The notes under the pieces were generated by a model. The model was not told where the DNA came from. It saw nothing but the letters and a program-made list of their open reading frames with translations, and did no database searches. The translations under genes and the position numbers were made by a program. This document shows positions 31,589 to 43,162 of a stretch of 64,000 nt of DNA, piece by piece (the first letter of the stretch is position 1; every line of letters begins with the position of its first letter). This stretch comes from Escherichia coli (GTDB taxonomy: Bacteria > Pseudomonadota > Gammaproteobacteria > Enterobacterales > Enterobacteriaceae): assembly GCF_029227855.1 (NCBI RefSeq), contig NZ_CP074356.1. One strand, 5' to 3'.

Positions 31589-31799
31589 GCGTTCATTAAT
31601 TTGATTTATTCTCATCCATCAGCGCTTTTAACTCCTCCGGCATAAACGGTGGTTTGCGTCGGTGCAACATCGCATGGCAATTAGGGCACACAGGCAGCAA
31701 AAAAACAAATGAGATCAAGGTAATATATCTTCACTTGCAGGCTTGAACAGCAGAAAATTTGCGAGCATGATCGCAATTATTTCACTGCCAGGGATATCA

Positions 31800-32672
31800 A
31801 TGGCTTCCAGTAAATCGCTACAGCAGGCAATTGCCAATATAAAAATCTGGCATAAGGGTGAACAGCGCGCACCGCATAAACCATTGTTATTGCTATACGT
31901 ATTAGCGGGATACCTGAATGGACATCCACGCCTTTTCGATTATGGATCGGAAATCTACGAACCTCTGCACAGTTTACTGGAACGTTTTGGGCCACAGCGT
32001 TCACAGTACCGACCTGATATGCCGTTTTGGCGATTACAAGGCGACGGATTCTGGCAATTACACAATGCCGAGCTTTGCTCAACAGCAGGGAGCAGCCGAC
32101 AACCGCCAGTGAAGGAACTGAACGAATACCACGTTGCAGGCGGTTTCGATGAACAGCACTACGCCCTGGTAACCGGCAATAAAAAACTCATCAATACTCT
32201 GGCGCAACAGATACTCGAAGCGCACTTCACCGAGAGTATTCAGGAAGAAATTGCTGACGAGCTGGGTTTTGATCTCCAGCAAATCCGTAAACAGCGCGAC
32301 CCGTTATTTCGCAAAAATGTATTACGCGCTTATAACTACCAGTGCGCGATATGTGGCTTTAATATGCGCCACGACGACACCACCGTCGCGCTGGAAGCGG
32401 CGCATATAAAATGGAAACAGCACGGCGGCCCTTGTGAAATCCCCAATGGTCTGGCGCTTTGCGCAATACACCATAAAGCCTTTGATAAAGGATCGATTGG
32501 CCTGGATGAAAATATGCGGGTACTGGTCTCGGATGCGGTAAACGGCGGAGGGATCGTTGAGAGATTATTCTGGGATTTTGACGGGAAAACTATTGCGTTG
32601 CCACAGGTGCGTAAAAATTACCCTTTTGAGGGGTTTGTGGAGTGGCATCGAAAAGAGGTTTTTAGGGGGTGA
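31800..32672 (+). CDS. HNH-family endonuclease with N-terminal domain of unknown function (candidate modification-dependent restriction enzyme)
   Basis: C-terminal motif AAHIKWKQHGGPCEIPNGLALCAIHHKAFDKG (H-N-H with flanking Cys/His); the track ORF starts at a TTG at 31743, the ATG at 31800 (MASSKSLQ...) has a better Shine-Dalgarno. Confidence 0.6.
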   Translation: MASSKSLQQAIANIKIWHKGEQRAPHKPLLLLYVLAGYLNGHPRLFDYGSEIYEPLHSLLERFGPQRSQYRPDMPFWRLQGDGFWQLHNAELCSTAGSSRQPPVKELNEYHVAGGFDEQHYALVTGNKKLINTLAQQILEAHFTESIQEEIADELGFDLQQIRKQRDPLFRKNVLRAYNYQCAICGFNMRHDDTTVALEAAHIKWKQHGGPCEIPNGLALCAIHHKAFDKGSIGLDENMRVLVSDAVNGGGIVERLFWDFDGKTIALPQVRKNYPFEGFVEWHRKEVFRG

Positions 32673-32984
32673 GGTAGCCATTATATATCTTTCACCTAGG
32701 ATTTTAAATGTAATAGATAAAGTATTTTCTGACACCGAAAGTAGTATTTATGAGTACATAGCCACAAATCAATTTTAAAATCTCAATATAAAATACGTTT
32801 ACAAATATTCTAGTCAGAGTAAATATATATTCATTATAAGAGAATCCAATTATTAACCAATCGAAATTACAAATTAAAAAACAATTGGCATGTTGAATTG
32901 TACACTAATTTATATACATAGTAAATTTACATCTATTCATGATATAATTATCGTGATATCAATTCATTAATCAGGAAAATCATA

Positions 32985-39858: not shown

Positions 39859-42750
39859 TTAAATAACTTTCCAGCGGATGGAAAAAAGCTCGGTGATATC
39901 CGTTTTTTGCTTCATCCGCTCTTCAAGGGCACTGATGAGTTCATCCCGCTTGTCAGCGATCTCATCTTCAATGTCAAAAATTTCCATACGTTGGCGTTTC
40001 TGCTGCCGTTCCAGTAGCTTCAGCTTTTCCTGGTTTTGCTTTTGTTCTTCCATCGATTGCGCCAGTCTGGCTTCTCGCTTTAACGACTTGATTTGCATTT
40101 TGGTATCGCGTAATGCTTCTTCCGCCGCAAAGATCATATCTTCAGCCCATTTTTCCAGCTTATCTCTTTCAGCTTCAAAAAGGACATTGTTCTGCTCCAG
40201 AACTTCCGCAAGTCTGGCGTCAATTTGCCTGTTCTTGAGTAAGATCAAGTCATCAGGTAATGCATCTGAACTTGCCGAATTATCCAGCTTTTCGTTGGTT
40301 ATTGCAGACAAGTTGAACAGACGTTTACAAGCTTCACCATCTACCACACGTCCGTTGTCAGTTTTTGCGGTAAAGACTAAAAATTGCTGCCTGTTAAACG
40401 CATCAACAGTAAGCAAATTTAGTGTTAACCACCCTGATTGCCCTTTCAGCTGCTCAGCCACCGAGACTTTCGTTGTGTGGTTACTGTAATCGAAGATGAC
40501 TTCAGCTGTTTTCGTCTCCTGGACCTTAGCCCCCTCAATGACGTACTCACCCAGCGGATGATTGATCCGATATGCAAAACTGTGGTGATCCTGCATTTGT
40601 AACGCACTATTTTGCCTACCATCTTTGCGCAACAGCTGGTACTGCCCGACAGGCAGTTCATTTACTGATTCACGTAAAGTGAAACGATGATGCTCATGAT
40701 CAAAATCAGCATATTGTTTGAGCTGCTGACAGGTCACGGCCCAAAACCAACGACCGACTTTATCCAGACGCTCCCGAGCTTCATCAAGCCTTATTTTAAG
40801 GATATCGTGAATATCTTCATCAAAATGCTCAAGCAACTGTTCTTGCGTCTTCTGCATCTTGAGATTGATTTCATCTTCCAGCTCTTTCTGCAACCTTTCA
40901 AAAGCCAGCTCTATCTCCTCGGGGGTACGGCATGACTCATAAATTGACTGGATCCTTTTTTCAAAATCCACACCATTTTCTATGCTGCCAAGCACACTAT
41001 CCGATGCGCCAAACACGCCATCAAACAGGCTGAACTTTTCAGTTAAGAGTTCAAGAACGCGTTGATCGGCCTGGTTTCGCTGATTGAGGAAGTTAATAAC
41101 AACCACATCAAATTTTTGCCCGTATCGGTGACAACGTCCAATACGCTGTTCAATGCGTTGTGGGTTCCAGGGTAAATCGTAATTGATCAGTAGCGAACAA
41201 AATTGCAGGTTCACCCCTTCAGCTGCAGCTTCTGTAGCTATCATGATTTCAGCATGATCTTTGAAGTGGTCGATCAAAGCCGAGCGTTTATCAATTTGCG
41301 CCGACCCGGTAATACGAGAAGATCCCTGATATTCCTCGCGCCATTGCTGGTAGATCTTGTTTGCCTGCGGTGTATTGTTTGTGCCACTAAAGGTTACTAC
41401 TTTCCCCTGGTAGCCATTGTTTTCCAGAAAATGTGCAAGATACTGTTGAGTTCGCATTGACTCCGTGAAGATGATGACTTTTTTTGCAGCCCCCATTTCG
41501 GCAAGCTGTGCAAAACCTTGCTCCAGGCCAGAAAGCAACTCTTTTGATTTGGTATCAGTGCCAATCTGTTCTGCTTTGACAATGAGTGATTCCAGCTCAT
41601 TGATTTCTGCCTGAAGCGCGTCTGAATCGACAACTTTGCACTCGGTATCTAAAGCCACTGATTCGGCATCTTCCACGATGTCATCTTCAAGATCGTCATC
41701 CATTATGATCTGTTGGATGATGTTCATATCATCTTCAACGATACCTTCCAGCTTTAACCTTTCTAAACGACTCTTAAGGATCTGCAAGTTATTCAATACA
41801 GCTTTCGTACTTGAGGAAAGTAGCTTTCTGAGAATAAGCCCCGTCAGATGCCGGTGTCGTTTTGGTAAGGCATAGCTATCCTCACGTTCAAGCAATTTTT
41901 GTACGCGTTCATAAAGATCCTGCTCCTGTTCGCTCGGATAGAAAGGAATAGTGATCGCTTTACGTTCTGTATACTTGATGTACTCCAGCACATTCTTGCG
42001 TAAAGTTCGTTTGATAAAACGCGACAATCGCCCCTTCAACTCCGCAATATCGCTATCTGCCTGCATATATTGCTTTCTGAACGCTTTAACTTCGCCGAAG
42101 GTATGTTCATCTATAAGCGTCGACATGCCATACAGTTCCATTAACGAATTCTGTAAAGGCGTTGCGGTCAGTAGTAATTTTTTCCGCCCATCAAGCGCAC
42201 GCTTTAACGCTTGCCCCATTTTGTTACTTTCTCGATGAGCATTACGCAGTTTATGGGCTTCGTCGATAACAACCAGATCCCACATTTCAGCCACCAATTT
42301 TTCTTCTAACCGAGCAGCATAGTGGTATGACATGATAGTGATCGATTTATTATTTAAGGGATTATGGATCCCTTCTTTTTGAAGCTGGCTATACGTTTTC
42401 GCGTCCAACACCTGAGAAGGTAGATTGAACTTTTCCTGTAACTCGCTCGCCCATTGGCGACGCAGTGAAGCAGGACAAATGATCAACAGTTTACGTTTTC
42501 TTTCAGCCCACAACTGGCAAAGCACTAACCCCGCTTCAATGGTTTTACCTAAACCAACTTCATCGGCAAGCACAACACCTTTGCTTAGCGGATTTTCAAT
42601 AGCAAAAAGAGCCGCCTCAATTTGATGAGGATTTAGATCTACGCTTGCATCAAACAGCGATTGAGACAGACGGTCCACCCCATTGTTTGAATGGAGAATG
42701 GAAAGTTCATGCGCAAAATATTTCGCATGATAAGGTGTTGTACCAATCAT
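39859..42750 (-). CDS. SNF2-family (SWI2/SNF2) helicase/ATPase
   Basis: 963 aa; motifs LADEVGLGKTIEAG, VVIDEAHKLRN, LLLTATPLQNSLMELY, PWNPQRIEQRIGRCHRYGQ; coiled-coil-like C-terminus. Confidence 0.8.
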   Translation of the reverse strand: MIGTTPYHAKYFAHELSILHSNNGVDRLSQSLFDASVDLNPHQIEAALFAIENPLSKGVVLADEVGLGKTIEAGLVLCQLWAERKRKLLIICPASLRRQWASELQEKFNLPSQVLDAKTYSQLQKEGIHNPLNNKSITIMSYHYAARLEEKLVAEMWDLVVIDEAHKLRNAHRESNKMGQALKRALDGRKKLLLTATPLQNSLMELYGMSTLIDEHTFGEVKAFRKQYMQADSDIAELKGRLSRFIKRTLRKNVLEYIKYTERKAITIPFYPSEQEQDLYERVQKLLEREDSYALPKRHRHLTGLILRKLLSSSTKAVLNNLQILKSRLERLKLEGIVEDDMNIIQQIIMDDDLEDDIVEDAESVALDTECKVVDSDALQAEINELESLIVKAEQIGTDTKSKELLSGLEQGFAQLAEMGAAKKVIIFTESMRTQQYLAHFLENNGYQGKVVTFSGTNNTPQANKIYQQWREEYQGSSRITGSAQIDKRSALIDHFKDHAEIMIATEAAAEGVNLQFCSLLINYDLPWNPQRIEQRIGRCHRYGQKFDVVVINFLNQRNQADQRVLELLTEKFSLFDGVFGASDSVLGSIENGVDFEKRIQSIYESCRTPEEIELAFERLQKELEDEINLKMQKTQEQLLEHFDEDIHDILKIRLDEARERLDKVGRWFWAVTCQQLKQYADFDHEHHRFTLRESVNELPVGQYQLLRKDGRQNSALQMQDHHSFAYRINHPLGEYVIEGAKVQETKTAEVIFDYSNHTTKVSVAEQLKGQSGWLTLNLLTVDAFNRQQFLVFTAKTDNGRVVDGEACKRLFNLSAITNEKLDNSASSDALPDDLILLKNRQIDARLAEVLEQNNVLFEAERDKLEKWAEDMIFAAEEALRDTKMQIKSLKREARLAQSMEEQKQNQEKLKLLERQQKRQRMEIFDIEDEIADKRDELISALEERMKQKTDITELFSIRWKVI

Positions 42751-43139
42751 CTTTTCTCTCTCTTCGCTGTACTTTTGACGATAACCTGCTGAATTGAATC
42801 AAGATAGTAAAAGGATACGCCAATAGTGGTTGATCCTTGAAGTAAGGACATCTCCGGTTGCGGGCCTTTGACACATAAAATCAGCAATTTTACGCATCGT
42901 TTCATGGCTAAACAATGGCACATTAAGAATGCCACTCGCTAAATGCAATCTATTTCCTGAGCCATTAGACCAAGGCAATGAAGTTTTATATCTACTTAAT
43001 TTTCAGGATGATGAATGAACATCATTGATGGGAATGGGGCTTCCGAAGTTCTTAGATTATCAGCGTTACATACAAACAAAGTAGTGAAAACACAGGCACA
43101 AAAAAAGCCGCCCTTGAGCGACTCGATTTGCATACGATG

Positions 43140-43162
43140 TGGTGCGAAGGCCGGACTCAAAC
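43140..43162 (-). repeat. tRNA-Leu (leuX) 3'-end remnant; probable att-type repeat at an island boundary
   Basis: tggtgcgaaggccggactcaaac is the near-exact reverse complement of the leuX 3' end as recalled (GGTTCGAGTCCGGCCTTCGGCACCA); no complete tRNA is present. Confidence 0.45.

Follow-up and report, generated by a model that had tools for sequence, protein, structure and literature searches.

The 64,000-nucleotide stretch of Escherichia coli DNA analyzed here (contig NZ_CP074356.1 of assembly GCF_029227855.1; hereafter, the window) contains, between nanS and a short copy of the 3' end of the tRNA gene leuX, a block of restriction genes (31589-43139), followed on the right by an island with Ag43 and CbtA genes. 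This arrangement is best explained by successive insertions at leuX, in which the island left its distal attachment repeat (attR) beside a resident restriction locus made up of two layers, a reading to which a probability of about 0.85 is assigned. It is carried by the identity of the repeat, by genomes without the island in which the sequence left of the repeat follows intact leuX directly, and by the independent distribution of the restriction genes and the island among E. coli genomes.

The leuX 3'-end copy is the distal repeat of the island

Read on the minus strand, positions 43140-43162 are GTTTGAGTCCGGCCTTCGCACCA, while the final 24 nucleotides of leuX are GTTCGAGTCCGGCCTTCGGCACCA in strains E24377A, M8 and K-12. 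One C>T change and one missing G separate these sequences, with 22 of 24 positions matching, and leuX would read on the minus strand here, as do the island genes to the right. An edit-distance search at ≤4 edits found no other copy of the leuX 3' end in the 64-kb window, and a mismatch-only search of the window returned no match at all because of the 1-nt gap in the remnant. Block-wise shuffling of the window (100 shuffles) gave 0 matches at ≤2 edits. An earlier note on this DNA, made from the sequence alone, had recognized this near-identity and its strand and had made its reading depend on the match being present in leuX itself; it was found in the leuX of E24377A, the nearest complete genome.

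The sequence beside the remnant was compared with strains lacking the island. The 40 nt to its left (43100-43139) are identical to the sequence after intact leuX in strain M8, where leuX adjoins the SNF2 gene and no island is present, and megablast alignments of island-free genomes against the window stop at 43161-43164. The flanks are joined in these genomes: in M8 and 35 others, leuX, a 47-nt flank and the SNF2 gene are contiguous, and HKUOPY1 and 04-00955 show the same joining without the island, but with another cassette behind it. Since the remnant matches the leuX 3' end, and the 40-47 nt beside it follow intact leuX in island-free strains, 43140-43162 is the attR of the leuX island on its right, as the earlier note had proposed.

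The attR allele of the window is also found in E24377A, MLI121, NCCP12480 and GPEC1042. The missing G (CTTCGGCACCA to CTTCGCACCA) was observed in every E. coli copy of the junction checked, except that of BH100, which has a perfect 17 nt and then a 6-nt deletion; E. coli has at least two attR alleles, the window type and the BH100 type. The same G is missing from the attR of a Salmonella satellite and from that of a Serratia island, both described below. The recurrence of an identical deviation suggests that the half-site contributed by the island itself may lack this G, strand exchange taking place in the terminal GCACCA; the alternative is repeated mutation.

No tRNA gene was detected in the window by ARAGORN, and therefore the intact leuX lies outside it. 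The earlier note had expected an intact leuX and an integrase further right. Neither is in the window (the integrase was searched by tblastn with the Serratia enzyme), and both are present in E24377A, with which positions 1-59308 are collinear at 99.9% identity. In that genome leuX is intact at 4831854-4831938, a frameshifted tyrosine integrase lies beside it, and the remnant is about 55.3 kb away. This integrase pseudogene has 81% and 65% amino acid identity, over two segments, to a P4-type integrase of Serratia. Islands with P4-family integrases are familiar at leuX, with phage P4, the KpLE2/intB island of K-12 and pathogenicity island (PAI) II of uropathogenic E. coli (UPEC) 536 as examples. 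One end of such an island is formed by the intact tRNA gene with its adjacent integrase, and the opposite end by a short direct repeat of the tRNA 3' terminus. An intB-like integrase and a 9.5-kb fec module (99.7%) are common to KpLE2 and the island of E24377A, which departs from the islands named in that its integrase is a pseudogene and its attR is imperfect. Relatives also vary in this region: an extra copy of the insertion sequence (IS) IS66 is present in E24377A at the point corresponding to 59301-59308 and missing from the window, and MLI121 likewise has a different leuX-proximal island half.

Cassette and island are distributed independently

Distribution was examined in 5426 complete E. 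coli genomes, a region being counted as present when at least 80% of it was found. Homology of the window to HKUOPY1 and GPEC1042 ends at 32677 and restarts at 43093. This comparison divides the block into two layers, an anchor (31589-32677) with an HNH gene and a restriction gene directed at phosphorothioated (PT) DNA, and a variable defence cassette with four genes. The anchor was present in 1704 of the genomes and left a trace in 4924, including a 250-bp fragment in K-12, and the cassette was present in 149. The earlier note had regarded the block as a single acquired element at the hotspot; its accessory nature is borne out, and the single element is replaced by a widespread anchor combined with a rare cassette. 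The largely complete cassette copies listed are all chromosomal, and none was found on the plasmids of PLSDB.

Three junctions were counted. The order SNF2, flank, remnant and island end is found in 99 genomes, the order SNF2, flank, intact leuX and ahr, without the island, in 36, and the island end with its remnant in 1366, mostly next to other cassettes, of which the lone 2-kb gene of GPEC1042 and BH100 is an example. The anchor is followed in other strains by McrBC with Type I restriction-modification (R-M), BREX-1, a Wadjet-like system or that 2-kb gene, with the island present or absent. The operon and the HNH gene lie outside the island, where the earlier note had put them, and do not move with it as one unit.

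The cassette of the island-free M8 is 98.9-99.3% identical to that of the window and thus closer to it than the cassette of the island-bearing NCCP12480 (97.2-97.9%), while the island end is 99.6-99.8% identical across the carriers compared and the cassette alleles differ by 1-3%. Since M8 has the closer cassette and the island end is nearly invariant, cassette ancestry is not tracked by island presence, and within E. coli the cassette family seems to be of greater age than the island end of the window. The block had been called older or separately acquired. Separate acquisition agrees with the independent distribution; greater age is favoured, not proven, by a divergence of 1-3% against 0.2-0.4%, and also because integration at leuX places the newcomer between the tRNA gene and the prior occupant, so that the cassette would predate the island in this lineage.

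Deletion has also shaped the locus. In W60 only the first 430 nt of the cassette are kept, fused to IS66 inside the island (33107 / about 59300-61100), and the module, the attR and the Ag43 half of the island were lost in an IS66-associated deletion. Partial cassette matches only were obtained in 235 genomes, and the W60 type, represented by one examined genome, appears to account for most of them (about 230 with the 430-nt match alone). W60-type genomes are deletion derivatives of the window-type arrangement, and a W60-like event also explains the missing attR in K-12, in which no copy was found. An empty slot, represented by an artificial junction of the PT-restriction end and the leuX flank, was found in 0 of the 5426 genomes; nearest to it is LR-46, a rare emptied state in which IS3 joins fimB straight to the leuX flank and nanCMS and the entire hotspot are gone. 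Genomes of the GN06098 type, in which the match starts at the remnant, were considered as tandem islands and discarded, the break being merely an IS21 insertion.

In K-12 the counterpart of the block, beside nanS, consists only of yjhR and the 250-bp PT-restriction fragment. The yjhR pseudogene is the C-terminal third of the Mokosh protein MkoC (PADLOC, 463.7 bits, profile positions 812-1135 of 1136). The earlier note had the block in the position that the KpLE2 remnant fills in K-12, which is right for these two relics. The intB-fec part of KpLE2 corresponds to the island instead.

The locus and the phenomenon are already known, leuX being a textbook integration site and the hotspot being catalogued. 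The leuX gene anchors hotspot #37 among the E. coli defence hotspots (Hochhauser et al. 2023, PMC10121019; review PMC12707154). According to Hochhauser et al., 97% of genomes have an occupant there, 31 types of system are represented, and in 68% of cases a mobile element was not detectable (PMC10121019). What is described there is the same leuX-side interval with interchangeable defence cassettes, often without a recognizable mobile element and sometimes with P4-type elements or integrases. In the genomes sampled here its contents are Type III-like R-M, Type I R-M with McrBC, BREX, Wadjet-like systems and Mokosh relics. No essential difference separates the window from that account, and current understanding is unchanged by it; what it adds is the position of the attR, the two-layer anatomy and the junction counts. 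It is a worked example in which a 23-nt attachment scar splits a recent virulence-type island (Ag43, toxin-antitoxin, fec) from a probably older restriction locus, and the 5426-genome comparison shows that island and cassette assort independently.

The same module in Serratia and Salmonella

In Serratia plymuthica (CP185735.1), a bounded 14.4-kb island lies between tRNA-Leu(CAA) and attR, in the order tRNA-Leu(CAA), integrase, 101-aa open reading frame (ORF), Res, Mod, SNF2, IS3, CbtA, DUF4942 and attR, with an intact 418-aa P4-type integrase directly beside the four-gene module. It shares with the window the target tRNA, the four-gene module (about 80% nucleotide identity) and an attR with the same missing G, and differs from it in the intact integrase, the presence of both attachment (att) sites and the opposite orientation of the module.

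In Salmonella, leuX, CcdAB, an integrase fragment and an MkoC-like gene precede the module. A second Salmonella locus agrees with this one at 99.995% identity as far as the end of leuX, where in the second a P4-like satellite is inserted and has left an attR with the same two deviations as in the window. This pair is tandem accretion directly seen. Nucleotide homology of the window to Salmonella and Serratia spans exactly 32979-42752, from the small ORF to the SNF2 start, at 79-80%.

Origin of the block

The following course of events is proposed. An island of the P4-integrase type would have inserted into the leuX 3' end, leaving the attR at 43140-43162 and pushing the DNA previously next to leuX, from the 47-nt flank through to nanS, off the tRNA gene. 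The displaced DNA would be a resident restriction locus of two layers, the widespread PT-dependent Type IV gene with its HNH remnant and the rarer cassette. The latter would have been acquired separately from the island, most likely as the residue of an earlier leuX island minus its integrase. The locus would then have been built by successive insertions at one tRNA site and would have decayed via IS elements, deletions and frameshifts.

As islands carry the module in Serratia and Salmonella, we infer by analogy that the cassette may once have been island-borne in E. coli. The integrase-proximal arms of the K-12 intB and Serratia islands can be aligned to the 47-nt flank, with the shared pattern GTATG.AAAT.GA, a hairpin, T7 and then.TG.CT, and the HKUOPY1 flank agrees with the K-12 intB arm over about 95 nt. 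Strains called island-free thus also seem to keep a relic island arm beside leuX. Bounded cargo in Serratia and an arm-like 47-nt flank in E. coli show how cassettes of hotspot #37 may end up without a mobility gene. As expected of an integrative island, the block itself shows both presence/absence polymorphism and atypical composition.

Several observations weigh against this course of events. No integrase was detected in 31589-43139 (tblastn with the Serratia integrase, ORFs and annotation), and the block has no second att site at ≤4 edits and no bounding repeats. Near 31600-31750, where the earlier note had suspected a second att repeat, the best local score was 10, at background level; the null reached 15 at most, and the remnant scored 19. 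The note's suggestion of tandem island accretion is supported for the locus; the block itself lacks these hallmarks of mobility. In addition, the window holds neither leuX nor the integrase, and the proximal end of the island is known solely from relatives. The module is inverted relative to leuX, with SNF2 proximal in E. coli and distal in Serratia and Salmonella, and therefore loss of the integrase alone would not turn those islands into the E. coli cassette. Enrichment of the cassette among island carriers (99/149 against 1366/5426 overall) could reflect linkage or clonal structure, and homologous recombination could have brought the cassette in once the island was in place.

The alternative that survives best, although unlikely, is that the cassette was never island-borne in E. 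coli and occupies a chromosomal defence slot, whose contents are swapped by homologous recombination in conserved flanks, the 47-nt flank being the native leuX terminator. The lack of integrase, att sites and terminal repeats fits such a slot. In at least five unrelated cassettes, divergence sets in no more than a few nucleotides from the PT-restriction stop codon, the three with a captured leuX-side end diverge at the same position of the leuX flank, and the figure of 68% without a detectable mobile element, as given for hotspot #37 by Hochhauser et al. (PMC10121019), points the same way. However, the flank resembles integrase-proximal arms, including the match of about 95 nt between HKUOPY1 and the K-12 intB arm, and in Serratia a bounded island carries this module. 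The boundaries are also uneven, in that more genomes share the spacers 32678-33107 and 43043-43092 than share the module. Site-specific exchange of cassettes, considered because unrelated cassettes have near-identical boundaries, was rejected as unlikely: the cassette ends have no common motif, the two spacers have different neighbours elsewhere, the W60-type genomes are IS66 deletions, and the right boundary coincides with conserved island-arm sequence.

Rather less probable is a cassette younger than the island in this lineage, which replaced an earlier one by recombination after integration. The same island end and attR allele do stand beside different cassettes, and the island end is nearly invariant. 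Against this, the cassette with an identical flank abuts intact leuX in 36 genomes, its alleles are more diverged than the island end, and more events are required than for simple insertion. That the whole interval from nanS to leuX is one composite island, the 23-mer being an internal relic, is very improbable. Both parts are accessory, they share one interval that is called KpLE2 in the K-12 annotation, and they co-occur in 99 genomes; yet 36 genomes have the cassette without the island, the cassette accompanies the island end in only 99 of 1366, and there is no att site on the nanS side. Finally, although the remnant is short and imperfect, a chance match to leuX is practically excluded by the blank result of the 100 shuffles, the adjoining 40 nt identical to a true leuX junction and the megablast alignments of island-free genomes that end at the remnant.

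Genes of the restriction locus

The features of the region are collected in Table 1.

Table 1. Features from nanS to the leuX island, with window coordinates
Feature	Position	Strand	Basis
nanS, intact, left core boundary	30608..31588	+	320/326 aa identical to K-12 NanS
HNH endonuclease gene, 3' remnant	31596..31700	-	Partial HNH gene in RefSeq; full gene in relatives
Phosphorothioated-DNA-binding (sulfur-binding domain-HNH, SBD-HNH) Type IV restriction endonuclease, anchor	31800..32672	+	NCBIfam NF045808
Variable defence cassette (100-aa ORF, Res, Mod, SNF2), 10.4 kb	32678..43092		Homology breakpoints
100-aa ORF, conserved with module	32985..33287	+	Salmonella/Serratia counterparts
Type III-like Res subunit / DEAD-box helicase, 1126 aa	33334..36714	-	PADLOC REase_III, 2326 bits, full length
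Type III Mod methyltransferase (1040 aa in relatives)	36717..39839	-	PADLOC MTase_III, 2204 bits
SNF2-family helicase, DrmD-like, 963 aa, first gene of operon	39859..42750	-	Pfam SNF2-rel_dom and Helicase_C; PADLOC DrmD
leuX-proximal flank, 47 nt, with terminator-like hairpin (43105-43124, leuX strand; terminator scan)	43093..43139	-	(Nearly) identical to post-leuX sequence of island-free strains
attR, imperfect leuX 3'-end copy (distal att repeat of island)	43140..43162	-	22/24 match; shuffle test
leuX island, distal 20.8 kb, extends past window	43163..64000	-	Annotation of collinear E24377A; ORFs

On the left, nanS is intact and forms the boundary that the earlier note had drawn, with 98.3% nucleotide identity to K-12 up to 31591. 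RefSeq calls nanS a partial pseudogene in E24377A, M8 and others despite an intact frame 98% identical to K-12 NanS, which is probably an annotation artefact. The HNH gene next to it, 651 bp at full length in HKUOPY1 and GPEC1042, has a 571-bp internal deletion with the junction at about 31690-31701, as seen from alignment breakpoints and junction sequences. The deletion lies between imperfect short repeats (CAGGAAGCAAA / CAAGCAGCAAA in HKUOPY1).

The anchor endonuclease scores 438.6 bits against NF045808 (cutoff 180). Its N-terminus matches the sulfur-binding domain of ScoMcrA (5ZMO) and its C-terminus the HNH domain of TagI (6GHS), the combination of sulfur-binding domain and HNH nuclease that marks PT-dependent Type IV enzymes, to which it is assigned by prediction. 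It shares the N-terminal sulfur-binding domain and C-terminal HNH of the ScoMcrA-type endonucleases, and, at 290 aa, the predicted enzyme is shorter than ScoMcrA.

The cassette has a GC content of 31-45%, compared with 51-56% in the neighbouring island. Its small ORF, which is convergent with the operon described below, gave no Pfam, PADLOC or NCBIfam match; the corresponding ORFs of Salmonella and Serratia, likewise placed, have 59-62% amino acid identity to it. In Res, the Pfam ResIII/DEAD match is limited to residues 167-313, and no sequence match was found in the PDB, including the EcoP15I Res chain; homologues across Enterobacterales have 89-93% amino acid identity. Mod carries the Pfam domain N6_N4_Mtase (PF01555) at 489-812 and matches EcoP15I Mod (4ZCF_A, E=1.7e-39). 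The module is comparable to Type III R-M of the EcoP15I kind in its Mod and in the ResIII helicase region of Res, while both proteins (1040 and 1126 aa) far exceed their EcoP15I equivalents in size.

In the window, Mod is frameshifted at a run of six T (38480-38485), compared with seven in E24377A and MLI121, and the shifted frame reaches a stop at 38474-38476, just ahead of the catalytic methyltransferase domain. The difference may be a true mutation that inactivates or switches the gene, or else an error of homopolymer sequencing. Target recognition for Res is supplied by Mod in Type III systems; for this reason, a real frameshift would turn the system off without self-damage. The centre of Mod (37188-38672, from the DPPY to the FxGxG motif), where GC is lowest (31%), is replaced by unrelated sequence in NCCP12480, and the two alleles have an overall amino acid identity of 66%. 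The variant looks like an alternative target-recognition allele. Many cassette matches with about 86% query coverage, in two pieces and annotated 'DNA methyltransferase', probably carry the replacement seen in NCCP12480, the one such genome examined.

SNF2, Mod and Res very probably form one operon, since the gaps between them are 19 nt (SNF2-Mod) and 2 nt (Mod-Res), and would be expected to act together. The placement of SNF2 immediately upstream of an adenine-type methyltransferase gene is reminiscent of the drmD-drmMI pair of class 1 DISARM. None of the block proteins matched the DISARM core proteins DrmA, DrmB (DUF1998) or DrmC (phospholipase D family, PLD), and SNF2 reaches 666.7 bits against the NCBIfam model DISARM_DrmD_b, under its cutoff of 950. 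Membership of DISARM was rejected, as the core genes are absent and SNF2 falls below the DrmD equivalog cutoff. It is conceivable, if somewhat doubtful, that the four-gene module, kept together as a unit in E. coli, Salmonella and Serratia, is a distinct uncharacterised restriction-like defence system, a hybrid of Type III R-M and DISARM in which SNF2 and the small protein are obligatory partners of the Type III-like enzyme and not just neighbours of an ordinary Type III system.

Island content and other regions of the window

To the right of the attR, the island part in the window contains helix-turn-helix (HTH) fragments, DUF957, DUF5983, CbtA/YeeU, a RadC-like JAB protein and an antirestriction protein, together with DUF932, Ag43 (48130-51051), a GTPase, an Hha-like protein and IS66 copies.

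Left of nanS, IS1 truncates the type 1 fimbrial operon (26570-27331 and 25680-26570), as in E24377A, with fimB, fimE, fimA, fimI, fimC and the 5' part of fimD missing. The mdtM-yjiA interval (about 3220-4753, coordinates transferred from the E24377A annotation), which in K-12 is the immigration control region with hsd, mcr and mrr, holds only an IS1 copy and a BrnT/BrnA toxin-antitoxin pair.

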